From the IMG/VR virus record IMGVR_UViG_3300020450_000008: a stretch of 64,000 nt of DNA; one strand, given 5' to 3'. The notes beneath the pieces were generated by a model. The model saw only the letters and a list, made by a program, of their open reading frames with translations, did not search any database and was not told the origin of the DNA. This DNA comes from a virus (Duplodnaviria; Caudoviricetes). Position numbers and translations under genes: made by a program. Below are positions 5,309-22,529 of this stretch, piece after piece; positions within the stretch are counted from its first letter, which is position 1; every line of letters starts with the position of its first letter.

Positions 5309-5584
5309 ATGTCAGCTATAGCAACAGCTTTTTTAGAAAGAACCTGTCATATATGCGATGCCGTAAATCTTTTTGTATATAAGTTATACATAAAAGCAAA
5401 GTGGAGTAAAGAACTTCGTAGAAACTATAATGCGTTTGAAAACCTACTTAGTAAATACGATAGTGAAGCAGGTTATCATTTAACAAGAATGAACGAAGCA
5501 ACTAACGAAAAATATCAAAACAAATTAAATGCAACTAAACTAAAACCTTTTAAGTGGGGTTGGGAAGATAATGGAGATGACTAA
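5309..5584 (+). CDS. Hypothetical protein
   Basis: ORF with GAGGA SD. Confidence 0.55.
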   Translation: MSAIATAFLERTCHICDAVNLFVYKLYIKAKWSKELRRNYNAFENLLSKYDSEAGYHLTRMNEATNEKYQNKLNATKLKPFKWGWEDNGDD

Positions 5585-6020
5585 TATGAAAAACTTTTAT
5601 TTAATTCTGATAACAATGTGTTTTATGGGTGGTATGTTTTTATCTGCGAATGCTGCAGATATGTCAATAGATATGCTGAACAAACAAGGTAAAGAAAAAA
5701 TGTTATACAGTGTTAACGTAGCTGAAGTTGACGTTGGAGACACTATTACCTGGCAGCCAAAAGATAAAGGACATAACGTACAGTTTATCGCTGGTCCTGA
5801 TGGATGGAAACTTCCAAAGAAGTCTAAGATGAATGCTGTAGTTGAAATTACTTTTGATACTCCAGGTATGTATCTTTATCAGTGTACACCACACGCAACA
5901 ATGGGCATGATCGGCGTTGTAATAGTTGGTGGTGACGTATCTAATAAAGATGCTATTGCTAAAGTTAAAATTAGAGGCAAAAGTAAAAAGAAACTGAAGA
6001 AAATACTGAAAGATATTTAA
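5571..6020 (+). CDS. Pseudoazurin-like type 1 blue copper protein with signal peptide (likely start 5586)
   Basis: GHNV first His ligand and YQCTPHATMGM (C-x2-H-x4-M); hydrophobic leader ending ANA-A. Confidence 0.88.
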   Translation: MEMTNMKNFYLILITMCFMGGMFLSANAADMSIDMLNKQGKEKMLYSVNVAEVDVGDTITWQPKDKGHNVQFIAGPDGWKLPKKSKMNAVVEITFDTPGMYLYQCTPHATMGMIGVVIVGGDVSNKDAIAKVKIRGKSKKKLKKILKDI

Positions 6021-6746: not shown

Positions 6747-9278
6747 ATGAAATCTTTTTATACTTCCGTAAATCGCTATGGCAATTCTATACTTTATCGT
6801 GGTTACAACGAAAATGGAGCTGCCATAGCTCAAAGATATAAATTTTCACCTACACTCTATACACCATCAAAGAAACCTACCAAGTTTAAAGGCTTTGATA
6901 GTGGATATGTTGCACCATTAAGTTTTCCAACTATGAGGGATGCTAAAGAATGGCTGGAACAATATCAAGAGATGGAAGGTGTAAATATATTTGGCACAAA
7001 AAATTATATACATCAGTTTATTACAGAAAAATTTCCTGATAAAATAGACTTTGAGCCAAATGCTATCAATGTTGTTAACTTCGATATAGAAGTTGCATCT
7101 GATTCTGGATTTCCAGTTCCGGAACAAGCGGCATATCCAATCACAGCAATCACAGTTAAATCAAGTCAATCTTCAGTATATCAAGTCTGGGGTTGTGGCG
7201 AATACAGCTCAGAAAAATGTGAAATAGAACTATATGGAAATCTGATTCAATATCACAAGTGTAAGAATGAAACAGAATTACTTGCTAAGTTTCTTGGTTA
7301 TTGGATAAAAAATTATCCTGATGTTATAACAGGTTGGAATACTCGATTCTTTGATATTCCATACATTGTAAATCGTATAAAAAATGTTGGTGGTGAAGCA
7401 GCTGCTAATAGATTATCTCCTTGGAAATTAGTAAGTGAAAGAAACCTAATGATTGGCGGCCGTATGAATTATGGCTATGACATAACTGGCATTCAACAAG
7501 CAGACTATTTAGAATTATTTAGAAAGTTTGGATATTCATATGGTCCACAAGAATCATATCGTCTTGATCATATCGGTCATGTTGTACTTGGTGAACGCAA
7601 ACTTTCTTTTGAAGAACATGGTAGCTTATTAAATCTGTATAAAAATGATCATCAAAAATTTATTGATTATAATATTAAAGATGTTCAATTAGTAGATCGA
7701 ATCGATCAGAAGATGGGACTTATTAATCTAGTATTTACTATGGCTTATAGAGCTGGTGTTAATGTTACAGATACATTTGGCACTACAGCAATATGGGAAT
7801 CAATCATTTATCGTAGATTACAGAAAAATAATATCATAAGCCCTATTGATCAAATTAAAAAAGTCATTTATCAAAATAAATCAAATGCAAATGTTATTGA
7901 AGGTGGCTATGTTAAGGAACCTCAAGTTGGTGCACATGACTGGGTGGTATCATTTGATCTAAACTCTCTATATCCAAACATAATAGTTCAGTCTAATATA
8001 TCACCCGAAACTTTAATTAAAGATAAATCATTCGGTCATTACGAACAAGATGTCCAACACTATCTTAACAGTAAAGATAAAACGTCAAAAGAATATTCTA
8101 TATGTGCAAGTGGTGTTCCTTTCTCTCATGAAAAACAAGGTATCATACCAGAGTTAATTGTTGAATATTATGCAGAACGTACACAAATTAAAAAGAAAAT
8201 GTTAGAAGCTAAATCTGCATATGAAAAAGAAAAGTCTCGCCAACTTGAAGCAGAAATTAATCAACTTGAAAATAATCAAATGGCCATCAAGATCTTATTG
8301 AACTCTCTTTATGGCGCATTGGCCAATAAGTACTTTAAGTATTTTGATAATGCTCTTGCCGAAAGTGTTACACTTACTGGTCAGCTTTCGATTAAATGGG
8401 CAGAAAAAGCTATCAATCAAGAGATGAATAAAGTTCTTAAGACTGGTAATAAAGACTATGTTATAGCAATCGATACCGATTCTTTATACATTAACTTTGG
8501 TCCACTTGTGCAAAAGCTAAATCCAAAAGATCCAGTTGCGGCTATTGATAAACTATGCCAAACACATTTTGAAAAGAAACTTGCTGAGGCTTATGATAAA
8601 CTATTTAATAACTTAAATGGTTATACACCTAGAATGGAAATGGGTAGGGAGGTTATTGCTGATCGTGGAATCTGGACAGCTAAGAAAAGATATATTCTTA
8701 ACGTACATAACTCAGAAGGCGTACAATATGCTGAACCTAAACTTAAGATTATGGGTATTGAAGCTATCAAATCTTCTACACCAGAAGTTGTTCGTAATAA
8801 ATTTAAAGAGGCATTCAAGATTATAGTGTCAGGTGATGAGTTAAAAACTCGTCAGTTTATTAATGATTTTAAAGAAGAGTTTAAACTACTTTCTCCAGAG
8901 ATGGTATCATTTCCAAGAAGTGTACAAAATGTCGGTAAGTGGAAAGATAGAATACACATTTATTCTAAAGGTACTCCAATTCATGTTCGTGGCGCGCTTT
9001 TATATAATCATCATGTATCAGATCTTTTCCTCGATAAAAAATATTCTCAAATCAGCTCAGGCGATAAGATAAAATTTTCTTATCTCAGATTACCAAATCC
9101 TATCAAAGAAAATGTTATATCGTTTCCTGACTTCTTACCACAAGAATTCAAGCTTCATAAATATATCGATTATGATACTCAATTTGATAAAACATTTATC
9201 GAGCCACTCAATCCAATACTTGAAGCGGTTGGGTGGTCAGTAAAAGAACAAGCAACCTTAGAGGAGTTTTTTGGATGA
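6747..9278 (+). CDS. gp43: Family B DNA polymerase, uninterrupted
   Basis: Exo I FDIEV, SFDLNSLYP, KILLNSLYGA, IDTDS; C-terminal clamp-binding-like TLEEFFG. Confidence 0.97.
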   Translation: MKSFYTSVNRYGNSILYRGYNENGAAIAQRYKFSPTLYTPSKKPTKFKGFDSGYVAPLSFPTMRDAKEWLEQYQEMEGVNIFGTKNYIHQFITEKFPDKIDFEPNAINVVNFDIEVASDSGFPVPEQAAYPITAITVKSSQSSVYQVWGCGEYSSEKCEIELYGNLIQYHKCKNETELLAKFLGYWIKNYPDVITGWNTRFFDIPYIVNRIKNVGGEAAANRLSPWKLVSERNLMIGGRMNYGYDITGIQQADYLELFRKFGYSYGPQESYRLDHIGHVVLGERKLSFEEHGSLLNLYKNDHQKFIDYNIKDVQLVDRIDQKMGLINLVFTMAYRAGVNVTDTFGTTAIWESIIYRRLQKNNIISPIDQIKKVIYQNKSNANVIEGGYVKEPQVGAHDWVVSFDLNSLYPNIIVQSNISPETLIKDKSFGHYEQDVQHYLNSKDKTSKEYSICASGVPFSHEKQGIIPELIVEYYAERTQIKKKMLEAKSAYEKEKSRQLEAEINQLENNQMAIKILLNSLYGALANKYFKYFDNALAESVTLTGQLSIKWAEKAINQEMNKVLKTGNKDYVIAIDTDSLYINFGPLVQKLNPKDPVAAIDKLCQTHFEKKLAEAYDKLFNNLNGYTPRMEMGREVIADRGIWTAKKRYILNVHNSEGVQYAEPKLKIMGIEAIKSSTPEVVRNKFKEAFKIIVSGDELKTRQFINDFKEEFKLLSPEMVSFPRSVQNVGKWKDRIHIYSKGTPIHVRGALLYNHHVSDLFLDKKYSQISSGDKIKFSYLRLPNPIKENVISFPDFLPQEFKLHKYIDYDTQFDKTFIEPLNPILEAVGWSVKEQATLEEFFG

Positions 9279-10006
9279 CAAATTATGTTTTCGATGTGGA
9301 TGGAACACTTACACGTAGTAGGGGAAGAATAAATGAAGGATTTAGAAGATTCTTCTTAAAATTTATTCAAGATCATAAAGTATATCTTGTTACTGGAAGT
9401 GACTACTATAAGACAGTAGAACAAGTTAGTCGTGAGGTCACTGAATCAGTTGAAAAGGTATTTAATTGTTCTGGGAATAGTGTTTGGAGAAAAGGTTTAA
9501 ATATTCAAAAAACGGATTGGAGTATTCCTATGGAAGTAAAGGACTGGCTTAAAAAGAAACTTAATGAAAGTAAGTTTGATTTAAGAACTGGAAATCATAT
9601 AGAAGAGCGACCAGGACTTGTAAACTTTAGTACCATAGGTAGAGGCTGCAACTTAGAACAAAGACAATCGTATGTAAAGTTTGATAGCATACATGAAGAA
9701 AGAGAAAAGATTACAAAAGAATTTAATGATAAATTTAAAGATATTACTGCTCAGGTTGCTGGAGAAACTGGGATAGATATTATACCAGCTGGAAAAGATA
9801 AAAGACAAGTAGCATTTATGATTGATGGACCTATAACATTTTTTGGTGATAAAATGAAATATGGAGGAAATGATTATCCATTGAAATTTGCCATAGAAGG
9901 TCGTGCTGATTCAGGTGCTATAGAAGTTAAAGATTGGGAACAAACGCATAGATACTTACAACAAATACAAATTTTCAGTTTACAAGAAGCTGTCGGTATG
10001 GTATAA
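9275..10006 (+). CDS. HAD-family phosphomannomutase-like protein (start at ATG 9275)
   Basis: FDVDGTLT, LVTGSD, HIEERPGLVNFS, FFGDKMKYGGNDYPL; ATGA overlap with gp43. Confidence 0.8.
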   Translation: MTNYVFDVDGTLTRSRGRINEGFRRFFLKFIQDHKVYLVTGSDYYKTVEQVSREVTESVEKVFNCSGNSVWRKGLNIQKTDWSIPMEVKDWLKKKLNESKFDLRTGNHIEERPGLVNFSTIGRGCNLEQRQSYVKFDSIHEEREKITKEFNDKFKDITAQVAGETGIDIIPAGKDKRQVAFMIDGPITFFGDKMKYGGNDYPLKFAIEGRADSGAIEVKDWEQTHRYLQQIQIFSLQEAVGMV

Positions 10007-10007
10007 T
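9979..10007 (+). promoter_or_regulatory. Early promoter
   Basis: TTTACA-N17-TATAAT. Confidence 0.7.
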
Positions 10008-10027
10008 ATACTTGGAAGGATAAAATT

Positions 10028-10441
10028 ATGAGTACACATTGGTCAAAAGATATTAGTGATATGCATCAAAAGTTTGGTGTTAATAAATGGTTTACTAAAA
10101 ATAAATCAAACAAAGAGATTATGAAAAAATATCTTATGTTTCGAATGCTTATGTTAAATGAAGAACTACATGAAACGATGCAAGCTGTAAATAGTGAAAA
10201 CCCAGAAGAAATAGTAGATGGTTTGATAGACATATGTGTATTTGCAATAGGTACTCTCAATGTTTTAGAAGTTGATGCTGATAAAGCTTGGGATGCCATA
10301 CATAATGCAAACATGGCAAAAGAACCTGGCGTAAAAGCTGGTAGACCTAATCCTTTCGGTATGCCAGATCTATTAAAGCCAGAAGGTTGGAAAGGACCTG
10401 ATCATAGCGACAATCATGGAAGTATCAGCGACATTCTTTAA
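10028..10441 (+). CDS. MazG-like all-alpha NTP pyrophosphohydrolase (candidate dCTPase/dUTPase)
   Basis: EELHE...EEIVDGLID acidic helices; ANMAK, DLLKPEGWKGP. Confidence 0.75.
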   Translation: MSTHWSKDISDMHQKFGVNKWFTKNKSNKEIMKKYLMFRMLMLNEELHETMQAVNSENPEEIVDGLIDICVFAIGTLNVLEVDADKAWDAIHNANMAKEPGVKAGRPNPFGMPDLLKPEGWKGPDHSDNHGSISDIL

Positions 10442-11345
10442 ATCAATATACGATAATAAAACACATCGTAGAATGGATTTCCCAAACTTTCCTAAGTTTG
10501 AGGAGTTCCTATATAAATTATCTGAAAGAAAACTTGGAGGCAAAAATGATGCAGAACTTATGTGTCCAGCTACGTTCACTAAAGATACTACCCGAGCCAA
10601 TAGAAACGTATTGGATTGGGCAGGCTGGGCTGCTGTTGATGTTGACGATTATGAATTCAAAGGGGATATAAAAGATGCTTTACGCGATACAATTGGCTCT
10701 TTCCATTACATTTGTTATAGTACTGCTAGCAGCCGAGAAAGTCTTCCAAAGTTTCGTATTGTCTTTCCAACTCGAGAAAGAATTGGAGCAGGCAACATCA
10801 GAGCTTTCTGGTATGCTCTCAACTCAAAGCTCGAGTCAATTGGTGATAAACAAACTAAGGACCTCTCACGCATGTATTATACTCCTGCTACGTATAATGG
10901 CGCTTTCAACTTTATCTTTACTAATGCTGGCTCTATTTTAAATCCAGCTGATCTAATAGAAAAATATCCATACGTTGAGAAAAATACAGGTAAAACATTC
11001 TTGGATAGATTACCCGAAGCTTTACAAAAGCAAATAATACAACATCGTAAAGATAAAGCTGAAAATAGAGATATACGATGGAATCATTACAGTGATTGTC
11101 CGTTCTGGCCACAAAGACTCGCATCAGAATACAAAGTAATAAGTAACACAGGTTGGTATCATAAGATGTATCAAATTATGGTTGCCACTGCAAGTAAAGC
11201 AATTCAAAGAGAATATCCTATTACATCTACAGAGATATCAGAAATGTGTAAAGCATTTGATGCTGATAATGGTAATTGGTACCAGAATAGACCTATTGAT
11301 AAAGAAGCGGATAGAGCAATTGAATATGCATATAAAAATATGTAA
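10416..11345 (+). CDS. Primase/PrimPol-like (AEP-type) protein
   Basis: AVDVDD (DxD), YSTASS, KFRIVFP, KDLSRMYY; helical C-terminal domain. Confidence 0.55.
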   Translation: MEVSATFFKSIYDNKTHRRMDFPNFPKFEEFLYKLSERKLGGKNDAELMCPATFTKDTTRANRNVLDWAGWAAVDVDDYEFKGDIKDALRDTIGSFHYICYSTASSRESLPKFRIVFPTRERIGAGNIRAFWYALNSKLESIGDKQTKDLSRMYYTPATYNGAFNFIFTNAGSILNPADLIEKYPYVEKNTGKTFLDRLPEALQKQIIQHRKDKAENRDIRWNHYSDCPFWPQRLASEYKVISNTGWYHKMYQIMVATASKAIQREYPITSTEISEMCKAFDADNGNWYQNRPIDKEADRAIEYAYKNM

Positions 11346-11352
11346 AAAAGTA

Positions 11353-11381
11353 TTTACTTTTGTCAAAAAGTTTGTTATAAT
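11353..11381 (+). promoter_or_regulatory. Early promoter
   Basis: TTTACT-N17-TATAAT. Confidence 0.75.
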
Positions 11382-11403
11382 AGAATTAGAATGGAGGTAA
11401 AAA

Positions 11404-11772
11404 ATGAAAGAATCAGTTAAAGTTTTACAAGAATGCGCTCAAATGCAAACTAAAAAATCAGCTGACTATCAAAGCGATGAGTCAAGTGTATTACAAGCAA
11501 TGCACTATCGTCGTGGCGTTGATACAATACACGATATTATAGTTGGCAAACTTATGCGTGCTACATCATTACTTGAATCAGGCAACTCACCAAACTTTGA
11601 ATCACTTGAAGATAGTTATAAAGATATGATTAATTATGCATCATTTGCAGTATCTTATATGCGTGGTAAGATGGAAGGCCAAAGACAAGATCGTGATATG
11701 TTTAATAAACCAATTGACCCATCAGCGACAGTTGAAATTGTTGAAGAACCAATTGAGGCGCATGACGAATAA
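11404..11772 (+). CDS. Nucleotide-modification-associated domain (Nmad1/DUF1599-like)
   Basis: KKSADY...K..R...ESLEDSYKDMINY pattern. Confidence 0.6.
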   Translation: MKESVKVLQECAQMQTKKSADYQSDESSVLQAMHYRRGVDTIHDIIVGKLMRATSLLESGNSPNFESLEDSYKDMINYASFAVSYMRGKMEGQRQDRDMFNKPIDPSATVEIVEEPIEAHDE

Positions 11773-12005
11773 TGGCCGGAGCAATCAATACACCTTTAAG
11801 ACAACTTATTATGGATTGGAGTGCATGCCAATTGTTAGAGAAAGATCCTGATAATATTGTTCTTAAAAAACTTAGATCTTGGGAGCATCCTGAAACAATA
11901 GAACTAAATAAACTATTAACACAATTTGAAAAAGATGGAAAATATCCAGAACACTATAATTTAGACTGGGGTTCAATTAATTATGAAGAGTTTATAAAAG
12001 AATGA
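11772..12005 (+). CDS. Hypothetical protein
   Basis: Coupled ORF in operon. Confidence 0.5.
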   Translation: MAGAINTPLRQLIMDWSACQLLEKDPDNIVLKKLRSWEHPETIELNKLLTQFEKDGKYPEHYNLDWGSINYEEFIKE

Positions 12006-12349
12006 AAGCTGGAAAGATATGGGGTCAAACAGAACTAATCCATGCAAATGGTGTTCTAGAGTTTCATCGCATTGAATATAAAAAAGGCTTTAAATGTTCA
12101 GAGCATGAACATCAATTTAAATGGAATGGATTCTATGTTGAGTCCGGACAAATGCTTGTAAGAGTCTGGCAAGACGATCAAGAAGGATTAGTTGATGAAA
12201 CTATATTAAATCCTGGAGACTTTACGCAAGTGAAACCTGGCAAGATTCATCAGTTCGAAGGACTTGAAGATGGAATTGCATTTGAACTTTATTGGGCTGA
12301 ATTCAATCACAACGATATAGTTCGAAGAACTGTAGGAACAAAAGTATGA
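12002..12349 (+). CDS. Cupin (sugar isomerase-like)
   Basis: KIWG, CSEHEHQFKWNGFYVESG, PGKIHQF. Confidence 0.8.
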   Translation: MKAGKIWGQTELIHANGVLEFHRIEYKKGFKCSEHEHQFKWNGFYVESGQMLVRVWQDDQEGLVDETILNPGDFTQVKPGKIHQFEGLEDGIAFELYWAEFNHNDIVRRTVGTKV

Positions 12350-12537
12350 TATATGGTTGGATATTGATAATGATAACTCTACATCCTGATGGATCATTAG
12401 ACGGTGGAGCAATAGATTATTTTAACACTTACCCAGAGTGTTTTGAAGTAATGAAAGAAATGTCGGTTACAGGTCAAGGAACAGGTTATACCTGTGTAGA
12501 TGACTATGTAGATATGAGTGGAGATATAGAACAGTGA
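12346..12537 (+). CDS. Small hypothetical protein
   Basis: Coupled ORF with two Cys. Confidence 0.45.
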   Translation: MIYGWILIMITLHPDGSLDGGAIDYFNTYPECFEVMKEMSVTGQGTGYTCVDDYVDMSGDIEQ

Positions 12538-12950
12538 GAATTGGATTTACCTGCAGTACCTTTGATTTACTTCATGCAGGCCATGTCATGATGTTAAGAG
12601 AAGCGAAAGCCCAATGTGATTATTTAATATGCGGACTGCAGGTAGATCCAAGTATAGACAGGCCAGAAAAGAATTCTCCTATACAATCTATTGTAGAAAG
12701 AGAAGCTCAATTATCAGCAATAAAATATGTTGATGAGGTGATTATTTATTGTACAGAAGATGATTTATGTGATATAATTAATATGTACCCAATTGATATT
12801 AGAATATTAGGCGAAGAGTATAGAGATAGAGACTTTACTGGTAAAGATGAATGTAAGAAAAGAGGTATTCAACTTTATTTCAATAAAAGAGAACATAGGT
12901 TTAGTACTTCAGATTTAAGGAAAAGAGTGTGCGAAAAGACGACATTATAG
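12534..12950 (+). CDS. Glycerol-3-phosphate cytidylyltransferase (TagD)-like nucleotidyltransferase
   Basis: GFTCSTFDLLHAGH (HxGH), YLICGL, LGEEY, STS motif. Confidence 0.88.
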   Translation: MRIGFTCSTFDLLHAGHVMMLREAKAQCDYLICGLQVDPSIDRPEKNSPIQSIVEREAQLSAIKYVDEVIIYCTEDDLCDIINMYPIDIRILGEEYRDRDFTGKDECKKRGIQLYFNKREHRFSTSDLRKRVCEKTTL

Positions 12951-13138
12951 ATCTAGGCATAGACTTAGGCGAACCAGACTTTACAACTAAAAATGATAGG
13001 CCAGGATTTATTAGTAGCAGTGGTTGGCCAGTTCGTAGAGAAATAACAAAGTTAAATGACAATATGAAAATTATGGTCAAGCAAATGAGTAAATTAAAAA
13101 AACAAATAAGTAAACTAGAGAAGAAACTAAATGGATAA
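12929..13138 (+). CDS. Hypothetical protein
   Basis: Coupled ORF with coiled-coil C-terminus. Confidence 0.45.
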   Translation: MRKDDIIDLGIDLGEPDFTTKNDRPGFISSSGWPVRREITKLNDNMKIMVKQMSKLKKQISKLEKKLNG

Positions 13139-13838
13139 TATTGTGGAAAATTTAACATGGGCAAAAGTAAAACATATTCGTCAGCATTTTAGAGATGAAT
13201 TAAACAAAGAAGTATTTACTATTGATAAAACTGGTCAAAAGACTATTGAAATGATTGGTGCATCTTTTGTTGCTGATGAATCAGCAATATTTGGTACTCC
13301 TAATCGAGAATATATTGATGCAGAAATAGATTGGTACAATAGTAGATCTACAAATATAAATGAAATATTTGGAATCACAAAAGCACCACCACAAGCTTGG
13401 CAATATTCAGCTAATAAGTTTGGTGAGATCAACTCTAATTATGGCCACTTAATCTTTAGTGAAAAATTTTATAATCAATATTTACATGTTGTAGAAGAAT
13501 TAATAAATAATCCTGATAGTCGTAGAGCCGCAATGATTTACAATCGTCCTTCAATATGGCTTGAATATAATGAAGACGGTAAGAATGATTTTATCTGTAC
13601 TAATGCTGTTACATACTATATACGTAATAGAAGATTAGATGCTGTAGTTCAAATGAGATCTAACGATGTGGTATATGGCTATAAAAATGATTATGCCTGG
13701 CAACAATACGTTATGAAACAACTTATTGAAGATATAAATGTTCAAAGACCCGATGATGATCAAGTCTTTAAAGGTTTTATGCATTGGCAGGTTCAAAACT
13801 TACATGTGTATGAAAGGCACTTTGATTTAGTACAATGA
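13131..13838 (+). CDS. gp42: dCMP hydroxymethylase (thymidylate synthase fold)
   Basis: Collinear with T4 gp42: DKTG.KTIE.IGASFVADE, GEINSNYG, NPDSRR, DF.CTN, MRSNDVV.G.KNDYAWQ, LHVYERHF. Confidence 0.9.
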   Translation: MDNIVENLTWAKVKHIRQHFRDELNKEVFTIDKTGQKTIEMIGASFVADESAIFGTPNREYIDAEIDWYNSRSTNINEIFGITKAPPQAWQYSANKFGEINSNYGHLIFSEKFYNQYLHVVEELINNPDSRRAAMIYNRPSIWLEYNEDGKNDFICTNAVTYYIRNRRLDAVVQMRSNDVVYGYKNDYAWQQYVMKQLIEDINVQRPDDDQVFKGFMHWQVQNLHVYERHFDLVQ

Positions 13839-14383
13839 GTCAATTATTTAAAGATCCAAAAAAACCAGCATTATTTGCAGATATGAATGATCCTGTTCTT
13901 AACGCGACATATAAAACAATGAATATTATTGGAGTCGATCCTGAAAAGAAATGGGATGTAAGATATATTGAACTAGCCTACAAAGTAAGTGAATGGTCAA
14001 AAGATCCATCAACAAAGATAGGATGTGTGGTTGTAGGAAATAAGGGACAGGTATTGACTCAAGGATACAACGGTTTTCCTCGTGGTATTGATGACTCAAA
14101 TGAAAGACTTACAGATAGAGAAACTAAATTGAAATACGTTGTTCATGGAGAAATGAACGCGATATATAATGCTTGTTATAATGGAATATCTCTTGAAGGA
14201 AGTACCATGTATGTTACTGGTCTTCCAACATGCTCTGATTGCGCCAAGGGTGTAATACAAGTAGGTGTTAAAAGAGTTGTCTGGCCTAAAGAACTTGAAA
14301 ATGTTGAAGACAGATGGAAAGAATCTGTTAAATTAACTATGTCTATGTTCGATGAAGCTGGAGTAGAGTATGAGTTCATCTAA
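13835..14383 (+). CDS. cd: dCMP deaminase
   Basis: SKDPSTKIG, GYNGFPRG, HGEMNAI, PTCSDC zinc ligands. Confidence 0.9.
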   Translation: MSQLFKDPKKPALFADMNDPVLNATYKTMNIIGVDPEKKWDVRYIELAYKVSEWSKDPSTKIGCVVVGNKGQVLTQGYNGFPRGIDDSNERLTDRETKLKYVVHGEMNAIYNACYNGISLEGSTMYVTGLPTCSDCAKGVIQVGVKRVVWPKELENVEDRWKESVKLTMSMFDEAGVEYEFI

Positions 14384-15287
14384 TGCTCAAACAAATTTAA
14401 GTCGACTTAAATTAGCAGCAGATAAACCTAAAACTGTTGTAGCTTCTGATTGGAAAAGGTATTATAGTCGGTATGTTGACAGGGCTTTCGCAAGAACAAT
14501 CAATATTGATACATCTACACGTTGCTTGATGCAATGTCCTTTTTGCTCTCGCCAAAATTTTGCAACTGGTAAACTGCACATCAAAACAAATAGAACGTTT
14601 TATGGAGATTTAACTCCAGAAAATGCTTTACAAATGGCTGATGCATTTGATCGTATAAGTTTTTGTGGTCAAATATCAGATCCAATATTTCATAAAAATT
14701 TATTCTCTATATTTGAAGCCTTAGATCAAGGTGCTGCTATTAGAACACTTGAGTTTCATACAGTTGCCTCTGGAAAAAAAATGGCTTGGTGGGAAAGAGT
14801 TTTCTCATATATGGAGAATGCAAAATATAAAACTGATTTTATCATAGGTATTGATGGAATTGATCAGAAAACAGCTTCTCATAGAATAGGACAAAACTTT
14901 GAAGAAGCATGGGAAGTCTTACGATATTTTGCTGATAATAAAAGAGATAATATAGATATCACCTGGCAGTTCATACCCTTTTTATATAATGAAGATGAAG
15001 TGTTAACTGCGGCAGAAACTGCTGTTTCATTAGGGATAAATTTATTACTTCTCAAATCATCTCGTCACGTTGGAGAGTATAAGACAAATACTGGAGATAA
15101 AAAATATGCTATAGGAGCTGATTTATACACTCAAGAAGAATTTGAAAAAAAATTTCAAGGTCATTTACCATTAGCTCCAACGAAATCATTTTTAAAATCA
15201 AATAATGGTATAACAAGTTTTAATGATGGATATATAAAAACAAAGGAAGATATAAAAGAATTAGAAAGAGTTTTAAATGAATCCTAA
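14370..15287 (+). CDS. Radical SAM protein
   Basis: CLMQCPFC (CxxxCxxC), FCGQISDP, IGIDG. Confidence 0.8.
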   Translation: MSSSNAQTNLSRLKLAADKPKTVVASDWKRYYSRYVDRAFARTINIDTSTRCLMQCPFCSRQNFATGKLHIKTNRTFYGDLTPENALQMADAFDRISFCGQISDPIFHKNLFSIFEALDQGAAIRTLEFHTVASGKKMAWWERVFSYMENAKYKTDFIIGIDGIDQKTASHRIGQNFEEAWEVLRYFADNKRDNIDITWQFIPFLYNEDEVLTAAETAVSLGINLLLLKSSRHVGEYKTNTGDKKYAIGADLYTQEEFEKKFQGHLPLAPTKSFLKSNNGITSFNDGYIKTKEDIKELERVLNES

Positions 15288-15858
15288 ACCTATTAGTTTT
15301 GAAATTGATCCAGTGTGTGTACCATTTGATAAAAATGGAGAAGAAAGAGAACAACAAAATTGCGTAGCCTTCGGTTCTCATGGTTGGTACATGCCATGCT
15401 GTTGGTGTGATCAGTTTCAAGATACTCGAAATAATTATATGGATATGTATTCTAAACATTTACATGCTTCAACTGGAATTACACCAAGAGAAGTCCTTGA
15501 ATCTCCAGAATGGCAAAATTTCTTTAAAGTTATTTTTGAAGACCCACAAAACTCTTCTCATGTTTGTCAAAAATATTGTGGTGTCATAAATTATGATGAT
15601 GGTACAAAAAGAAATGTCGTAGGATTTACTGATCAAGAAAGAAGAGATATGGGAAAAGATCTTGAATTTATCAAATTTTTTGAAGAAAATATGGAGAGCA
15701 ATAATAGTTACCAGTACTGGTGGGATTTTGTTCAAGATTATAGTGGTTGGTCAGCAAGAATGAAATCAAAAGCGTGGTTTAGATTTGGATATACAGGGAT
15801 AGGTAGGCTCGCAAAAATTAAAAGACTAGAGGATAATTTAAATGCAGCCAATGTCTGA
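15277..15858 (+). CDS. Stand-alone SPASM/Twitch-like Fe-S domain protein
   Basis: C...G..MPCCWCD...CQKYCG pattern, immediately after the radical SAM gene. Confidence 0.55.
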   Translation: MNPKPISFEIDPVCVPFDKNGEEREQQNCVAFGSHGWYMPCCWCDQFQDTRNNYMDMYSKHLHASTGITPREVLESPEWQNFFKVIFEDPQNSSHVCQKYCGVINYDDGTKRNVVGFTDQERRDMGKDLEFIKFFEENMESNNSYQYWWDFVQDYSGWSARMKSKAWFRFGYTGIGRLAKIKRLEDNLNAANV

Positions 15859-16180
15859 TAGTGCAGAACTCTTGATGCTCTCAAGTATATTTGCTGATCT
15901 TGAAGATGGAGAAACAAGAACAGAAAACATCAAAAGAAGAATAGATCTAATGCAAAAATTTGTTAGACCAACACCTACTCCAGCTAAAGTTGTGTCAACT
16001 CCATCTGAAAAGATGCAAGAAGAACTTGAACCTATTGCAGAACCAGAAGAAGAACAACAATTTAGTTTTTATAAAAAGGCAGATGCTGGTTCTGATTTAG
16101 TAGAACAACTCAGACAGAAAGAAATCATGAGAGCTGAACTTGCAGCTACTGTATCAAAAACCATGAAAAAATACAAATAA
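15842..16180 (+). CDS. Hypothetical protein
   Basis: ORF in operon. Confidence 0.5.
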   Translation: MQPMSDSAELLMLSSIFADLEDGETRTENIKRRIDLMQKFVRPTPTPAKVVSTPSEKMQEELEPIAEPEEEQQFSFYKKADAGSDLVEQLRQKEIMRAELAATVSKTMKKYK

Positions 16181-16184
16181 ACTG

Positions 16185-16213
16185 TTTACAAACTCTAAAA
16201 AATTTGTTATAAT
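16185..16213 (+). promoter_or_regulatory. Early promoter heading the UDG-like to epimerase unit
   Basis: TTTACA-N17-TATAAT. Confidence 0.75.
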
Positions 16214-16219
16214 ATTATT

Positions 16220-16594
16220 ATGAAAAAAATATTGATAGTTGGTCAAAATCCATCAGCTCAAAAGCCTAGAAAAAATTCTACATTTGATAGGTTAGATCAA
16301 TGGTGTAAAGAAATGAAAGTTGATGATTTTGATTTTATTAACTGTATTGATTCAGTTGGTGATTATAAAAAGCTAAATATCAATAAGACTAATATAGTAA
16401 ACTCAACTCAGAATCGTAAAAAGATTATAGCTCTTGGAAACTTTTCTTCAGAAACTCTGACTAAACTTGGGATAGATCATTTTAAGATGCCACATCCCTC
16501 TCCAAGAAATAGAAAACTTAATGATAAAGAGTTTGAGAAAAAAATGATTAATGAGTGTAAAAGTTATTTGAACGAAACCTGTGAGCTACTCTGA
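16220..16594 (+). CDS. Minimal uracil-DNA glycosylase superfamily protein
   Basis: ILIVGQNPS motif A, IIALG, MPHPSPRN motif B. Confidence 0.7.
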   Translation: MKKILIVGQNPSAQKPRKNSTFDRLDQWCKEMKVDDFDFINCIDSVGDYKKLNINKTNIVNSTQNRKKIIALGNFSSETLTKLGIDHFKMPHPSPRNRKLNDKEFEKKMINECKSYLNETCELL

Positions 16595-16640
16595 TCCAGT
16601 CAAATATCTCACGTTAATAAACTGATATAAAGGAGAAAAT

Positions 16641-17936
16641 ATGTCAAAAATTAAAGTCGGCATTGTCGGTGTCGGAAACTGTGCTAAGTCTCTCGTCGAG
16701 GGAATTCAATACTACAACTCAAATCCAGAAGATAAAGTAGGACTTATGTATGATGATATTGGTGGTTATACAACTACTGATATAGAATTCGTAGTCGGTT
16801 TTGATGTAGATCGTCGTAAAGTAAATCGTCCATTAACAGAAGCTTTAAGAGCCGCTCCAAACTGCGCTATGGATCATGTTGGAGAAATATTAGAAGTCGG
16901 TGCAAACACTCCAGGCTGTGTAGCTTCAGGAGCTATGGTATATTCTGGACCAGAACTAGATGGTATCGCACCATGGATGCTTGAATATCCTAAAGAAGTT
17001 TCATTTAGAACTGGAGCTGAAGCGGCAAAATCTTATGATGATATTGTAGACATAATTAAAAAGACTAAAGTTGATGTTCTGATTAATTATTTACCAGTTG
17101 GTACAGAAAAAGGGTCTAGATTTTATATGGATGCTGCATTAGACGCTGGTGTTCATTTTGTTAATTGTATTCCAACTCTTATATCAACTAAAGAAACTAT
17201 GGAGATAGAACAAAAGTTTATCAACAAAGGATTGACTATTGTTGGATCTGATATGAGATCCGCTTGGGGAGCTTCAAGAATGTCAGAAGTACTTCAAGGT
17301 GCTATGATAGATTCAGGACTAATGGTTACACAACATATACAGATGAATATGGCCGCTGGTTCTACTCAAGGTCAAGAAAATATACGAACAGGTAGAACAG
17401 CTAATACTGATTTTCTTAACATGGCAGAAAAATCTCGATTGCATAATAAACATGTATCAAAAGAAAATGTTTTGAAAGGTCAAAATATAGTACGTAATGA
17501 ACCTACAGCAGGTGCAACACTTTATGCTGGTCCATCTCTTACAGTATTTCAAAAGCCAGGTGGACAATATGTAGGTAGTGATAATAAAATAGCTAACTTC
17601 GATATTGTTGCTTATGGTTTTGGTGGGGCTAGATATGAAATGTCAGCTAGATTATCAGTACAAGACTCTCCAAACTCTGGTGGTGTTGTAGTATCTGCAA
17701 TCAGGTTCTGCAAAGTTGCATCTGAAATGAGCATTGTTGGTTATCTTAGAGGTCCATCAGCATGGACTCAAAAAACTCCTCCACTTCAGTTATCTACATC
17801 TGATTCAAAATTTGAATGTGATGCTTTGGCAAGACGTACTCTTACAAAATTAACTGAAGCTCAATTAAAAGTAAATAAACCAAAAGCAAAAAGTCTACCA
17901 TATACATTCCAAGCTGGAGAAACAGATTATGAGTAG
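16641..17936 (+). CDS. ino1: Myo-inositol-1-phosphate synthase
   Basis: VGIVGVGNCAKSLVEG, VLINYLPVG, FVNCIP, TANTDFLNM, DSPNSGGVV. Confidence 0.9.
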   Translation: MSKIKVGIVGVGNCAKSLVEGIQYYNSNPEDKVGLMYDDIGGYTTTDIEFVVGFDVDRRKVNRPLTEALRAAPNCAMDHVGEILEVGANTPGCVASGAMVYSGPELDGIAPWMLEYPKEVSFRTGAEAAKSYDDIVDIIKKTKVDVLINYLPVGTEKGSRFYMDAALDAGVHFVNCIPTLISTKETMEIEQKFINKGLTIVGSDMRSAWGASRMSEVLQGAMIDSGLMVTQHIQMNMAAGSTQGQENIRTGRTANTDFLNMAEKSRLHNKHVSKENVLKGQNIVRNEPTAGATLYAGPSLTVFQKPGGQYVGSDNKIANFDIVAYGFGGARYEMSARLSVQDSPNSGGVVVSAIRFCKVASEMSIVGYLRGPSAWTQKTPPLQLSTSDSKFECDALARRTLTKLTEAQLKVNKPKAKSLPYTFQAGETDYE

Positions 17937-18333
17937 AGAACCTTTTGAGCCTTGGAAAAACATTCCTCAAAAGACTATAAATTCATATGATATCGATGGC
18001 GTTATATACATGGGTGACTATGATGGATTAAGGCCAGGACCTGATGATATCGTAATTACTGGTAGATCTATTTGTACCGAAGAAGAAACTAAAAAAATGC
18101 TTCTTAAAAAAGGTATAACTAATCCTTTATACATGAATTTTAAAGACAAAGACTATAATAATAGAGAACAATCTGGATTTCATAAAGGTTGGACTTTATT
18201 TCATCTTGAGCAGCTGGGGTATCATATTGGAATCCATTATGATGATGATATGATTCAAATCGAAAAGATAAATGAAATGATGCCGCATATTCATTGCGTT
18301 CATGTAAAACACGAACTTGTACCAAAGGAGTAA
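17929..18333 (+). CDS. Small HAD-family phosphatase
   Basis: YDIDGVI motif I, ITGRS motif II, K, YDDD motif IV. Confidence 0.75.
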   Translation: MSREPFEPWKNIPQKTINSYDIDGVIYMGDYDGLRPGPDDIVITGRSICTEEETKKMLLKKGITNPLYMNFKDKDYNNREQSGFHKGWTLFHLEQLGYHIGIHYDDDMIQIEKINEMMPHIHCVHVKHELVPKE

Positions 18334-18335
18334 AC

Positions 18336-19406
18336 ATGTACAACTATGATTGGTGGTCTTACGATAAAGACATAATGAAAGATTTTAATCATTTCTTAAA
18401 AAAGATTAATACTCGAGCATGTATCAATTATGGTTTTATTGATGAGGAATATGAAAACTTAAATAGGCATGGAGACTTAGATCATGGTCTTGGTCGTAAT
18501 GTAGAATATTTCCACCCTACAATTACTTTAGATGATAGAATGAGATATATTGGTACAGTCATTGCGCAGCATGATATGTCTGATTTTAGTATTTTAGGCA
18601 ATGGTATAATATCTCACTTTTATGGAGCACGTGGCGTTCATATGGCAGTTACAGGATCTAACGATCCTAATGACTGTTTTGTTGATTTTGACAAATTAGC
18701 TGATAATGATAAAGATTACCTACAGCATCTTAGAAATAATATAGATAATTCTAGAAAGTTAAAAAAACCAATATGGGGTACAACAGAACTTCATACATCA
18801 ATACAAGCAGCTTCTAGAAATTATTGTAGACAAAAATATGATGACGCTGAAAGAGCATTCCATCCTGTTGACGTAGTTGATTGGGTTGCATCATTTAGAA
18901 ATAATGGAACATATGAAGAACTCTTTGCCGCAGATCATATTGGAGAAGCTTATAAAATATTAAGAAAGTTACCAGGTATTGGAGAATATTACGGATTTCA
19001 TGGTGCTGCATCAACTAGTGTTTTACCTCAAATGAAATATTATCATGATGATAAATTTGTAGCTCCAGGACCTGGTGCAGTATATACAATAGGACTTATG
19101 TGGCCAAAGGCTCCAAAAAAATATTATGCAGAAGCAATTTACTTCTTAAGAGAAAACAGCGATGAGATTGGTCTTACAGAAGATGTTAGTTTTCATCCAG
19201 GCGCTTATAACATCGATATGCCAGGTGGAAAAAAGCTTTTTAGAGAAGATCAAAAAACTCTTAAATATTATGGTACTGAAGTTTTATCTTGTCAGTTTGG
19301 TATATACTTACAGATTAGAGAAGATGCTAAGCTATGTGCAAAACGTCAGGTATCAAGAGCTACAGTACTTGAAGATCAAAATACGTTAGAAAGTTTTATG
19401 CAATGA
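18336..19406 (+). CDS. aGPT-Pplase / amino acid:DNA transferase-like (HhH-fold) DNA hypermodification protein
   Basis: LRKLPGIG HhH-like motif followed by YYGFH...DDKFVAPGPGA; AAGGAG SD before ATG 18336. Confidence 0.55.
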   Translation: MYNYDWWSYDKDIMKDFNHFLKKINTRACINYGFIDEEYENLNRHGDLDHGLGRNVEYFHPTITLDDRMRYIGTVIAQHDMSDFSILGNGIISHFYGARGVHMAVTGSNDPNDCFVDFDKLADNDKDYLQHLRNNIDNSRKLKKPIWGTTELHTSIQAASRNYCRQKYDDAERAFHPVDVVDWVASFRNNGTYEELFAADHIGEAYKILRKLPGIGEYYGFHGAASTSVLPQMKYYHDDKFVAPGPGAVYTIGLMWPKAPKKYYAEAIYFLRENSDEIGLTEDVSFHPGAYNIDMPGGKKLFREDQKTLKYYGTEVLSCQFGIYLQIREDAKLCAKRQVSRATVLEDQNTLESFMQ

Positions 19407-20389
19407 AAGCAATATTAAACTGTCCATTTATTCCAGTAGCAAAAAGAATAGCTTCTCACAGAGGAGCTCAAGGCGTTATGTATGGCGATATGATAAAACA
19501 AAAGTATGGTCATTGTGATGTCAACTTTGGTGGCGAGATTATAGATCATAATCAGTATGATACGATGTGGGTATATCATGGAAATGATTTTAGTGGTGGA
19601 TTAAATATGTTTGGTGGCGTTTATGGTTTTCCTTATGTAGAAAATACAGTAAACTTTTCTAAGTTTAAAGGTAAAATAAAATCAATAGCCATTGACTTTC
19701 CGCCATATCATGAATGGATAAAAGATAAATTAGATAAAGCTAAGAAAGACGTACAGCCTGAATGGGCCAGTGTAGATTTAAATAATCTTGAAAGAATGTA
19801 TAATGAAGCTGAAACGGTTGATTATCCAAATATGACCGACAAATTAGTCATAGGTGATTCACATTCGATATGCATGTATAGACCGGGTTGGACCGTCAAT
19901 AGCATACCATTTAAAACTTTAAATGGAGCTTTAAAAGAAGGTATTAAAACATTCATACCAAAAGGAAGTTTCAATCAAATAGAATTGTACTTTGGCAATA
20001 TTGATATAAGACATCATGTGTGTAGGCTAAATGCTGATATAGAAGAATTGGCTGATAGATATATTGAACAAGCAAAAGAATTGAATGCTAAAATATATGA
20101 ACTATTGCCAATAGAAAATGAATCACGCAAGTTACCACAATCTGGATATTATAAAGGCGAACCTTTCTGGGGTACATGGCAAGAAAGAACAGATGCAAGA
20201 AATAAATTTAATGATTACATTGAAAGCAAATATGGAATCATACGTTGGACGGATAAATTACTAAATAAAACTGGTGAACTTGATTTTGCATGTATGGAAA
20301 AACCAAAGTCAATACATTTAAGTAGAGAGTTCTATCCTCACTGGAACGGAGAGGAAGAGGTAAATACATTAGAGGAGTTTTTCGGATGA
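19403..20389 (+). CDS. Hypothetical protein with SGNH-like GDSH motif
   Basis: VIGDSHS, YFGNIDIRHH, SIHL; ends TLEEFFG. Confidence 0.5.
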   Translation: MKAILNCPFIPVAKRIASHRGAQGVMYGDMIKQKYGHCDVNFGGEIIDHNQYDTMWVYHGNDFSGGLNMFGGVYGFPYVENTVNFSKFKGKIKSIAIDFPPYHEWIKDKLDKAKKDVQPEWASVDLNNLERMYNEAETVDYPNMTDKLVIGDSHSICMYRPGWTVNSIPFKTLNGALKEGIKTFIPKGSFNQIELYFGNIDIRHHVCRLNADIEELADRYIEQAKELNAKIYELLPIENESRKLPQSGYYKGEPFWGTWQERTDARNKFNDYIESKYGIIRWTDKLLNKTGELDFACMEKPKSIHLSREFYPHWNGEEEVNTLEEFFG

Positions 20390-21582
20390 GCTTTGCAAGT
20401 ATAGTGCCACTCATAGGTGGTGAAACAATAGCAATGCAAAATGTATCAGGTAAAAAACCAGAATACATATTAAGCTATTCAGCGTTTGAAGCAAATGATA
20501 ACCAATTAGTTGAATACTATGATAACAAAGTACCATACTATCATTTAGATGGTAATATGCCAAAAAGTTTACCAACTGTAGAGTCTGTCAATACTGTTTG
20601 TCCTTGTGCTGGATTAAGCAGTCTTTCTCCAGTTGCTGGTACAAATAATAGTAATAATGATTGGATGAGTAAAACAGCTAAACATGTTTTAGAACATATC
20701 AATCCTAAAGTGTTTTGGGGAGAAAACGCTCCAAGACTTGCAAGTAAAATGGGTGAGCCTATAGTTAAAAATCTTAGAAAAATTGGAAGTGACAATGGAT
20801 ACACATTTTCAATATATAAAACAAAATCAATATTACATGGATTAAGTCAGGTAAGAGATAGAACCTTCTATTTCTTTTGGAAAGGAGATAAGATTCCACG
20901 CTTACCTTATATTCACAGAAATTACGAGCGTATTGAAGATACCATTAGAAATACAAAGCTTAAAAAAGATGATCCAATGAATATTCCAGTAAATAGTAAG
21001 GCTCCTACAGATAATCCTTTTTATAAGTATGTACTAGAGGAGATAGAAGGTGGTATAACACATTCAGAATTTCAAGAAAAAATAGAGCGTAGTACCAATC
21101 CTTTAGAAGAAATAGAGAGAGCCGGTATAAAATATCGTACTGTAGGCGAGTGGATGACTAAAAAAGGCTATGATAGAGAAGCAGAAAAGTGTAAAAGAAT
21201 GCATGATAAATTAGCATCAGGTGGTAACATAATGCGTAAAACTACTGAAATACCAAAAGATTATATTGGAGCTTTTGTTGGTCATATGCCAACATCACTA
21301 ACACATCCTGATGAAGATAGGTATCTTACAGTAAGAGAATGTTTATCAATCATGAAATTACCTGATGATTTTATGTTACAAGGTGGTCTTAAAAATCTTA
21401 ATCATATTTGCCAAAACGTTCCTGTGACTACGGCAGAAGATATGGCCACTAGTGTTCATGCTTTTGTAGAGGGAAGGCTTGATAACCAGATGATTGATAC
21501 AAAATTTTTAGTACAAGATAACAAAAATAAGTCATTGGATTATCAAAGAGAAAGCATGCAACTAGATGAGTTTATGGTATAG
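20386..21582 (+). CDS. Atypical C5-cytosine DNA methyltransferase-fold protein
   Basis: Motif IV CPCAGLS, VI ENAP, VIII QVRDRTF, IX RYLTVRECLSIM; motif I degenerate (VPLIGG) and motif X degenerate (CQNVP). Confidence 0.7.
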   Translation: MSFASIVPLIGGETIAMQNVSGKKPEYILSYSAFEANDNQLVEYYDNKVPYYHLDGNMPKSLPTVESVNTVCPCAGLSSLSPVAGTNNSNNDWMSKTAKHVLEHINPKVFWGENAPRLASKMGEPIVKNLRKIGSDNGYTFSIYKTKSILHGLSQVRDRTFYFFWKGDKIPRLPYIHRNYERIEDTIRNTKLKKDDPMNIPVNSKAPTDNPFYKYVLEEIEGGITHSEFQEKIERSTNPLEEIERAGIKYRTVGEWMTKKGYDREAEKCKRMHDKLASGGNIMRKTTEIPKDYIGAFVGHMPTSLTHPDEDRYLTVRECLSIMKLPDDFMLQGGLKNLNHICQNVPVTTAEDMATSVHAFVEGRLDNQMIDTKFLVQDNKNKSLDYQRESMQLDEFMV

Positions 21583-21590
21583 GAGATAAA

Positions 21591-22529
21591 ATGAAAATAT
21601 TAATAACAGGACAAGCTGGATTTATAGGTTTCCATGCCGCTATTGGATTTAAAAATGATGGTTGGGAAGTACATGGTATTGATAACTTCAATGATTATTA
21701 TGATGTAAAACTGAAAAGAGATAGAGCTACTATTCTTCAAGATTTAGGAATTTCTACTATTGATGATACCATTGAAAATTTTAATAAAATAGATTTTCCA
21801 GAATATGATTTAATACTACATTTAGCCGCTTATACAAATCCCAGACACGCTTTAAAAACTCAACAACCTTATATTGATACTAATATTACAGCAACTCAAA
21901 GAATAATTGATGTAGCACAAGATAAAGGAACACCAGTTGTATACGCTTCAAGCAGTTGCGTCATGCTAGGACAACCACTTCCTTGGAATGAAACCGATAG
22001 ACCACAACATCAAAACAATCCTTATGGTTGGTCAAAGCATGTCAATGAATGCCAATTTAAACACTCAACTGTTGTAAGATCTGCTGGATTGAGATTCTTT
22101 ACGGTTTATGGTCCTTATGGAAGACCTGATATGGCACTGTTTTCTTTTACAAGATCGATAGTAAAAGATGAAGGAATAGTTTTATATAACTACGGCGATA
22201 TGAAAAGAGACTTTACTTACGTAGATGATATTATCCAAGGTATAAAAATAGTTGCAAACAAACTTATGAAAGATGAAGAAAACTATCATGAGATATATAA
22301 TATTGGGTATGGTGATCAAGTAGAGTTAATTGACTTCGTTGATCATATTGAAAAGAATCTTGGTAGAAAGACCGAAAGAAAATTAGAACCAATGCATCCT
22401 GCAGATGCAAAAGAAACTTGGTCAGATACTACAAAGCTTCAAGCACTTGGATATAAACCAACAACTCCTGTACAAATAGGAGTTGCTAAATTCGTTGAAT
22501 GGTATAAACAATATTATAATGTAAATTAA
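21591..22529 (+). CDS. NAD-dependent sugar epimerase (UDP-glucuronate 4-epimerase/WcaG-like)
   Basis: ITGQAGFIG, ASSS, YGWSK (YxxxK), RFFTVYGPYGRPDMA, RDFTYVDD. Confidence 0.9.
   Translation: MKILITGQAGFIGFHAAIGFKNDGWEVHGIDNFNDYYDVKLKRDRATILQDLGISTIDDTIENFNKIDFPEYDLILHLAAYTNPRHALKTQQPYIDTNITATQRIIDVAQDKGTPVVYASSSCVMLGQPLPWNETDRPQHQNNPYGWSKHVNECQFKHSTVVRSAGLRFFTVYGPYGRPDMALFSFTRSIVKDEGIVLYNYGDMKRDFTYVDDIIQGIKIVANKLMKDEENYHEIYNIGYGDQVELIDFVDHIEKNLGRKTERKLEPMHPADAKETWSDTTKLQALGYKPTTPVQIGVAKFVEWYKQYYNVN

Follow-up and report, generated by a model that had tools for sequence, protein, structure and literature searches.

Why should the products of three consecutive enzyme genes of a T4-like phage share a short C-terminal peptide with its DNA polymerase? 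The question is raised by the viral record IMGVR_UViG_3300020450_000008, of which we analyzed a window of 64,000 nt of T4-like marine myophage DNA (33% G+C) that encodes gp62, regA, gp43, UvsX and gp41. The gene for the gp43 family-B DNA polymerase (positions 6747 to 9278, plus strand; phrog_262 with an E value of 0, PF00136 and PF03104) ends, directly before its stop codon, in QATLEEFFG, which is the reference clamp-binding epitope of this phage. Farther along the same strand, a helix-hairpin-helix (HhH) protein (18336 to 19406) ends in QNTLESFMQ, an open reading frame (ORF) with a GDSH block (19403 to 20389) ends in VNTLEEFFG, and a protein with a C5-cytosine-methyltransferase (MTase) fold (20386 to 21582) ends in SMQLDEFMV. 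All four C-termini read exactly as quoted in the initial annotation, made from the sequence alone; the intervals that it gave for them, such as 9255 to 9278, cover the last seven codons and the stop but not all nine quoted residues. Its proposal that the three enzymes dock on the sliding clamp was supported, as a prediction, by every computational test that we ran. The shared peptide is probably this lineage's version of the T4-type gp45-binding epitope, and clamp docking of the three enzymes is predicted from it.

The four ends conform to the pattern x-[ST/Q]-L-[ED]-x-F-[FM]-x. Among all 322 ORFs of at least 40 amino acids on both strands, these were the only real genes to match, and a relaxed pattern added one spurious out-of-frame ORF and no further real gene of the window. 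When each of the 98 non-overlapping plus-strand proteins was shuffled, 0.0052 matching genes were expected against the four observed, and two or more matches arose in none of 5,000 shuffles.

In T4, the epitopes of gp43, gp55 and gp33 are hydrophobic and acidic, interchangeable, bind gp45 and lie behind a divergent flexible linker (PMC2988020, where a crystal structure of the RB69 clamp-peptide complex is also cited). The background on T4 docking peptides given in the initial annotation agrees with this source and with the T4 record, in which gp43 ends in ...KASLDFLFG and gp55 in ...SPSLDFLYEAND, each before the stop codon. To place the tailed enzymes beside the clamp of the same phage, we used an exact-protein match to recover the stretch that lies upstream of the window on the same 178.6-kb contig (L004). 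Just upstream of the window this stretch encodes the gp45 sliding clamp (L004:6502-7176; phrog_223, E value of 4e-77), the gp44 clamp loader (L004:7416-8354) and gp55 (L004:3058-3648; phrog_234, E value of 1e-51), and likewise gp46 and gp47. The small subunit of the clamp loader, gp62, is encoded within the window (2874 to 3254, plus strand; phrog_225), and gp45, gp44, gp62 and gp55 are thus all found on the contig that carries the tailed enzymes. The gp55 protein, an established clamp client in T4, ends here in DSDLTDFLK, with the same core as the enzyme tails, and its relatives end in DSDLxxF[LMFI]x. The C-termini of gp44 to gp47 are unrelated and lack the core, and gp33 was not found in the window.

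We read the C-termini of 120 homologues of the GDSH protein (53 to 86% identity), 120 of the MTase-fold enzyme and 72 closer relatives of the HhH protein (PF18723), and located orthologues, tails and downstream sequence in 80 related viral contigs. In the GDSH family (1610 homologues), an L..F core lay within the last 10 residues of 112 of the 120 proteins read, mostly as [ST]LExFF with one optional extra residue. The core was present in 119 of 120 members read of the MTase-fold family (2469 homologues), nearly always as QLDxFM[VIL], and in 58 of the 72 closer PF18723 relatives, as [ST]LxxF[FLM] preceded by a basic C-x-RRKV[AS]R segment. Related genomes kept the HhH tail in 76 of 79 cases and the polymerase tail, [ST]L[ED][DE]FF(x), in 27 of 27. 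Each family has its own tail flavor, with QLDxFM set against TLExFF, and the 795-amino-acid protein of Aeromonas phage 44RR in which GDSH and HhH proteins are fused bears a single tail, at its extreme C-terminus. This fusion in phage 44RR2.8t (L001:1908-5888) has a counterpart at L002:1877-5882, the GDSH-HhH fusion proteins being 795 to 805 amino acids long.

The tail sits behind a linker that is poorly conserved. In the HhH protein of the window the conserved basic segment is followed by a variable linker and then QNTLESFMQ, and in the GDSH protein VNTLEEFFG is separated from a conserved YPHW[NT]G by a linker whose length and sequence differ among homologues. The linkers have an entropy of about 3 bits, as against 0 to 0.5 bits at the core positions, the residue before the Phe being variable. 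AlphaFold2 (AF2) models of both proteins have low predicted local distance difference test (pLDDT) values over linker and tail (56 to 74 in the GDSH protein; below 50 at residues 340 to 356 of the HhH protein). In every family, five or six different codons specify the invariant Leu and both TTT and TTC the Phe, and this use of many synonymous codons points to selection at the protein level. In each of these unrelated enzyme families the tail is a conserved addition to the protein, present in about 95 to 100% of the closer homologues read.

The initial annotation had cautioned that Glu codons in two of the tails double as the Shine-Dalgarno (SD) sequence of the next gene, and the sequence bears this out: in the polymerase and GDSH genes, the start codon of the following gene, an ATG that overlaps the end of the tailed gene, lies 8 to 13 nt downstream of GAGGAG. 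Over their final 21 nt (9258 to 9278 and 20369 to 20389) these two genes show a single difference. The stretch takes in the ATGA overlap of stop and start and encodes the clamp tail, the SD sequence of the next gene and a coupled start together; this near-identity could reflect a shared constraint or gene conversion. The HhH and MTase-fold tails of the window contain no SD-like sequence. Among the tails of related contigs, 61 of 63 on MTase-fold, 39 of 79 on HhH, 17 of 74 on GDSH and 12 of 27 on polymerase proteins likewise lack one. The gene after the MTase-fold gene usually begins 16 to 60 nt downstream and has an SD sequence of its own; elsewhere the motif is kept before spacers of 62 to 142 nt that hold promoter-like TTTACA...TATAAT elements, and in Aeromonas phages 25 and 44RR intrinsic terminators directly follow the tail. 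Comparison of orthologues with different downstream neighbors therefore contradicts the idea that the motif persists only where it supplies an SD sequence to a coupled gene. GAG is overused relative to GAA at the first acidic position of the polymerase and GDSH tails, which fits a secondary use as an SD sequence where genes are coupled.

The strongest evidence for clamp docking is that the enzyme tails co-vary with the tail of the resident polymerase. Distant PF18723 members have other hydrophobic tails, also in T4-like phages, and the enzymes carry the tail type of their own genome, with a polymerase, where one was found, of the same type. In one lineage the polymerases end in ...IYSTSLF or ...IYASALF, the HhH proteins in ...QNSLF or ...QQTLF and the GDSH proteins in ...TSLF or ...NSLF. 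In a 359-kb T4-like phage (G001) the corresponding ends are ...TIIEF, ...QLIVF and ...PLIEF, and in a further genome (G003) they are ...SLEDFFG, ...DLSSFFD and ...VENFFS, with ...MSSYFQ on the MTase-fold enzyme. The polymerase of Aeromonas phages 25 and 44RR ends in ...NNLFDMFDI; phage 25, in which no HhH protein was identified, has a GDSH protein ending in ...TLELFDI, and the HhH-GDSH fusion of 44RR ends in ...SLDGLFAI. In Salmonella phage ViI, the polymerase ends in ...RRVNLLSMMGKKG, the PF18723 protein in ...GSVNLLDRLKKPE and gp33 in ...RLLKGELKSKKLI.

We sorted these ends into the classes LxxF[FLM]x, x[SAT]LF and [LI][LI]xF (the latter two at the very C-terminus), LxxF[DA]I (also terminal; Aeromonas) and VNLL..KK (ViI). 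The enzyme and polymerase classes agreed in 52 of 52 genomes for the HhH protein, 46 of 46 for the GDSH protein and 22 of 22 for the MTase-fold enzyme. For neither the HhH nor the GDSH family did any of 20,000 permutations, with polymerase tails shuffled among de-replicated genomes, reach the observed similarity; on the MTase-fold pairs, which share a single tail class, the permutation test has no power. Homologues without a tail exist as well. The GDSH homologue of Tenacibaculum phage PTm5 is untailed, and no gp45-type clamp was detectable in that phage, which is what docking on the clamp predicts; the MTase-fold homologue of cyanophage S-TIM5 is also untailed, and that phage has no gp43-type polymerase.

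Several features of these phages were observed alongside. In Aeromonas phages 44RR, UP87 and 25 (L176-L181), gene 43 is split into N- and C-terminal ORFs, and the ...LFDMFDI tail is on the C-terminal part only. Immediately upstream of the GDSH homologue of phage 25, a 358-amino-acid protein (L003:2381-3457; phrog_14998) ends in ...KSCLDLIMA before a terminator and, by its C-terminus, may be another clamp-tailed enzyme. Phage ViI (NC_015296; L283-L285, at about 87.4 to 88.7 kb and 145.1 to 148.1 kb) is a phage with characterized thymidine hypermodification, and the VNLL..KK tail type is common to its PF18723 protein, a member of the kinase family, and its polymerase.

Structure prediction of the tails with gp45, as suggested in the initial annotation, gave weak support for the one tail that was folded. 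For this prediction gp45 was entered as a trimer, in the form of an alignment of related proteins, and paired with the C-terminal 40 residues of the MTase-fold enzyme, whose tail is the least like that of the polymerase. The interface score (ipSAE) was 0.46, 0.46 and 0.35, with a best control of 0.16; the prediction lay 0.30 above every control, and replacing gp45 reduced the score to 0.00.

A number of points weigh against clamp docking. The prediction runs share at least 53% of their contacts, and the pLDDT of the partner is about 40. The mark applied to such predictions was reached by 58 of 80 solved complexes and by 2 of 110 mismatched pairs, and at scores of 0.60 or lower by only 7 of the 80 solved complexes together with both mismatches; moreover, the solved RB69 clamp-peptide complex could have been remembered by the model. 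About five independent lineages underlie the co-variation, and three of these are represented by one or two genomes each. A gp45-type clamp was not detected in the ...SLF and ...IIEF genomes with either a narrow gp45 profile or PF09116, in searches in which genomes G004 and G005 were only about 50% complete and the 359-kb phage gave no match. In Pseudoalteromonas phage XG4 the MTase-fold homologue (30% identical) is untailed although the polymerase ends in SLDDLFM, and in the uncultured lineage L229-L258, known from contigs that are 4 to 19% complete, neither enzyme has a recognizable tail. Finally, T4 alpha-glucosyltransferase (alpha-GT) co-purifies with gp45, but its affinity for the clamp did not determine modification levels in vivo (PMC13216743).

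In the uncultured lineage (for example, L242 and L256) and in L279 and L280, the HhH protein ends in ...YYDLNC and the GDSH protein in ...VVFSF. The family-B polymerase of the lineage is very divergent (29 to 31% identity) and carries an ILEEY element that lies 5 to 10 residues before the C-terminus; the contigs of the lineage, which are incomplete, yielded no gp45-type clamp.

Part of this evidence bears on the identity of the docking site. The tail might dock not in the gp45 pocket but on some other partner that the polymerase also contacts, such as the clamp loader, gp32 or a scaffold of a modification complex. Co-variation demonstrates a partner shared with the polymerase without identifying it, and both the undetected clamp in genomes with other tail classes and the weak complex prediction leave room for such a partner. 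We nevertheless consider this unlikely: no partner of the gp43, gp55 and gp33 epitopes other than gp45 has been established by experiment (PMC2988020), gp55 of this phage bears the same core, and the predicted interface stood clear of all controls and vanished with the replacement of gp45.

A role intrinsic to each enzyme, in oligomerization, as a degradation or targeting signal or in the active site, is less probable still. It would leave the likeness to the polymerase to coincidence or to recombination between neighboring genes, and the nearly identical 3' ends of the polymerase and GDSH genes are indeed open to homogenizing recombination; the GDSH model also has a short helix at the tail. 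The tail is, however, borne by three unrelated folds, behind a variable low-confidence linker rather than packed into the fold, and the untailed homologues of PTm5, S-TIM5 and XG4 argue that the fold does not need it. The family-specific flavors speak against recent copying, and in distant lineages the tail class switches together with that of the polymerase. The least credible explanation, that the likeness is a nucleotide by-product of SD sequences for coupled genes and the peptide itself is functionless, can draw on the GAGGAG spacing, the preference for GAG and the shared last 21 nt, but it founders on the many MTase-fold and HhH tails that lack an SD-like sequence, on the persistence of the motif before promoters and terminators, on a freely varying residue between the acidic position and the Phe next to an SD-irrelevant Leu and Phe that are invariant in spite of many synonymous codons, and on ...SLF and ...IIEF classes that have no purine run.

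Docking on gp45 is thus favored by protein-level conservation in three unrelated families whatever lies downstream, by the match of the enzyme tails to the resident polymerase and gp55 tails, by their change in step with the polymerase tail across five tail types and by the untailed homologue in a phage with no detectable gp45-type clamp. It is most likely that DNA hypermodification in this phage is tethered to newly copied DNA.

What, then, are the tailed enzymes? The initial annotation had labeled the gene at 18336 to 19406 as ADDT-like, a label that we replace: the protein probably has an HhH fold and matches only the helical domain (PF18723) of 5-hydroxymethyldeoxyuridine (5-hmdU) DNA kinases. 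It is a candidate HhH-fold DNA-base transferase, based on the gene call and this one domain match. Its AF2 model has a pLDDT of 86.9. With VIA-align, the model resembled the 5-phosphomethyldeoxyuridine (5-PmdU) glycinyltransferase gp46 of phage PaMx11 (8z2m; Z score of 8.2, root mean square deviation of 4.4 over 224 residues), DUF2419 (Z score of 8.5) and about 20 HhH DNA glycosylases (Z scores of 5 to 7.6). Members of the HhH superfamily fill the first 23 rows of the result, although Z scores below about 13 can be nonspecific for helical proteins. Foldseek returned nothing significant for this protein (best E value of 0.4), and a sequence search of the PDB gave no match. An identity as a 5-hmdU DNA kinase (5-HMUDK) was considered and rejected: only positions 142 to 238 match PF18723, no kinase-domain match was found, and there is no P-loop among the invariant residues.

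The GDSH protein had been called unknown in the initial annotation, yet its fold is recognizable. The AF2 model (pLDDT of 89.7; predicted template modeling score of 0.85) comprises an N-terminal domain of residues 1 to about 140 followed by an SGNH/GDSL-hydrolase fold at residues 142 to about 311, and the latter retrieved several SGNH esterases in Foldseek searches of the PDB and the AlphaFold database (probability of 1.0, E values of 1e-6 to 1e-7). The block I GDS nucleophile motif of this fold is present, and the GDSH block (G151-D152-S153-H154) is invariant among homologues. We therefore describe the gene at 19403 to 20389 (plus strand) as encoding a two-domain SGNH-fold enzyme.

The third enzyme (20386 to 21582, plus strand; PF00145 with an E value of 9e-18) retains catalytic motifs IV, VI and VIII of C5-cytosine methyltransferases as CPCAG, GENAP and QVRDR (PC, ENA and QxRxR). 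Motif I (window positions 20386 to 20420) reads VPLIGGE rather than the FxGxGG typical of S-adenosylmethionine (AdoMet) binding, and it does so in all 120 homologues read. The cofactor and the transferred group are uncertain as a result, and we call the protein an MTase-fold enzyme rather than a methyltransferase; judged by these motifs, in which the catalytic Cys is intact, its cofactor may not be AdoMet, or it may catalyze a C5 reaction other than methylation on DNA already containing 5-hydroxymethylcytosine (5-hmC).

The tailed genes belong to a cluster (13131 to 22529) that encodes, in addition, a gp42 orthologue, a dCMP deaminase, a radical SAM protein, a uracil-DNA glycosylase (UDG)-like ORF, a myo-inositol-1-phosphate-synthase-like (Ino1-like) enzyme and a small ORF, all before the HhH gene, and an epimerase after the MTase-fold gene. 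The thymidylate-synthase (TS)-like gene at 13131 to 13838 (plus strand) encodes a gp42-type dCMP hydroxymethylase that is 53% identical to T4 gp42 (E value of 3e-81) and keeps the MRSNDVV block. Given this orthologue, the DNA of the phage very probably contains 5-hmC, which is the likely substrate base in DNA. The Ino1-like enzyme (16641 to 17936, plus strand; PF01658) is of a class that acts on small molecules. Its gene also adjoins the HhH gene at seven loci of very divergent T4-like phages, and the linkage includes a 359-kb T4-like phage; this suggests an inositol-derived substituent. The gene at 21591 to 22529 (plus strand) encodes an NAD-dependent sugar-nucleotide epimerase/dehydratase (PF01370, E value of 1e-37). 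Taken as a whole, the cluster looks like an uncharacterized hmC-based hypermodification pathway. The C-termini of its precursor enzymes (gp42, dCMP deaminase, radical SAM, Ino1-like, epimerase and PMM-like) carry no tail, and the tail would therefore divide likely on-DNA steps from soluble ones.

Immediately upstream of the Aeromonas fusion gene lies a sodium:solute symporter gene (SSF family), with no Ino1-like gene in the stretch read, and the Aeromonas phage may take up its substituent from outside instead of synthesizing it. In the window, regA and gene 43 are separated by genes for Hsp20 (4675 to 5133) and a plastocyanin-like PetE (5571 to 6020), both cyanophage hallmarks; the polymerase is only about 48% identical to known cyanomyovirus polymerases.

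Under the clamp-docking model, the gp42 orthologue would make 5-hydroxymethyl-dC, and the phage would replicate with it. Clamps at the fork, or left behind on the DNA, would each offer three identical docking pockets, in which the HhH base transferase, the SGNH-fold enzyme and the MTase-fold enzyme could dock by their tails, which would keep them on the new duplex and let them move along it. Replication would then be closely followed by the remaining reactions on the base, which would be complete before unmodified DNA is exposed to host nucleases. The cluster's suppliers of soluble precursors (gp42, dCMP deaminase, Ino1-like, epimerase and PMM-like) lack the tail, and service of the Glu-Glu codons as the ribosome-binding site of the next gene would be a secondary use in two of the genes.

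Recruitment of modification enzymes to clamps has precedents. An interaction between T4 alpha-GT and gp45 was reportedly described by Sommer et al. in 2004. Short motifs recruit modification or repair enzymes to clamps in the case of eukaryotic DNMT1 and PCNA (through the PIP box) and of the bacterial beta-clamp (QL[SD]LF). These cases share with the phage tails a short linear motif on a clamp and modification that follows the fork; the clamp families and motif sequences differ, and in the phage one tail type is common to a multienzyme pathway. The docking principle itself is the known one of T4. Like the T4 and RB69 epitopes of gp43, gp55 and gp33, the tails are extreme C-terminal hydrophobic-acidic peptides, [ST]-L-[DE]-x-Phi-Phi, attached through a flexible linker of divergent sequence, the core occurs on the polymerase and late sigma factor of one genome, and the phage encodes gp45, gp44 and gp62. 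Its predicted additional clients are three base-hypermodification enzymes instead of replication or transcription factors, and the consensus is TLE[ED]FF or QLDxFM instead of SLDFL[FY].

The nearest precedent for a modification enzyme on the clamp is T4 alpha-GT, which is likewise a post-replicative hmC-modifying enzyme at the clamp and acts at the same pathway step, after gp42 and the polymerase. It ends in ...EQFDIITK, without a canonical polymerase-type tail, and its contact site is undefined, whereas the enzymes described here carry a canonical tail, on three folds, that is conserved in hundreds of relatives. Our literature searches on clamp-binding motifs of phage modification enzymes returned nothing beyond T4 alpha-GT. 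Thymidine hypermodification offers further likenesses. Its enzymes act on bases in polymeric DNA after replication, in accounts that make no mention of clamp tails (PMC8989533, PMC5889632 and PMC11472151). The HhH protein shares the helical domain of 5-HMUDK but not its kinase domain, its model resembles the solved gp46 of the aGPT-Pplase/PaMx11 system, and the hydroxymethylase upstream is of the cytosine type (gp42) rather than the uracil type.

It is a closer call whether phages generally tag the enzymes for on-DNA steps of base hypermodification with the clamp peptide of the resident polymerase, and we lean only narrowly toward such a rule. Unrelated folds (HhH, SGNH, the C5-MTase fold and the ViI PF18723 protein) would, by a similarly slim preference, have acquired the tail and co-evolved with the clamp of each lineage. 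Clamp-coupled hypermodification could be tested in cultured phages, namely Aeromonas phages 25 and 44RR and Salmonella phage ViI, and clamp-peptide interfaces could serve to tether engineered DNA-modifying enzymes to replicating DNA.

If true, docking would explain how multistep modifications are finished fast and completely on new DNA, with the sliding clamp as a moving platform that is also used by polymerases and T4 late-transcription factors. The tail of the resident polymerase would become a simple sequence marker for DNA-acting enzymes among unknown phage proteins, one that assigns the SGNH-fold protein of the window to DNA chemistry. Were the general rule to hold, the tail would point to unknown phage proteins whose substrate is polymeric DNA, distinguish steps before replication from those after it and mark in this phage an uncharacterized hmC-based, possibly inositol-linked modification by clamp-riding enzymes.

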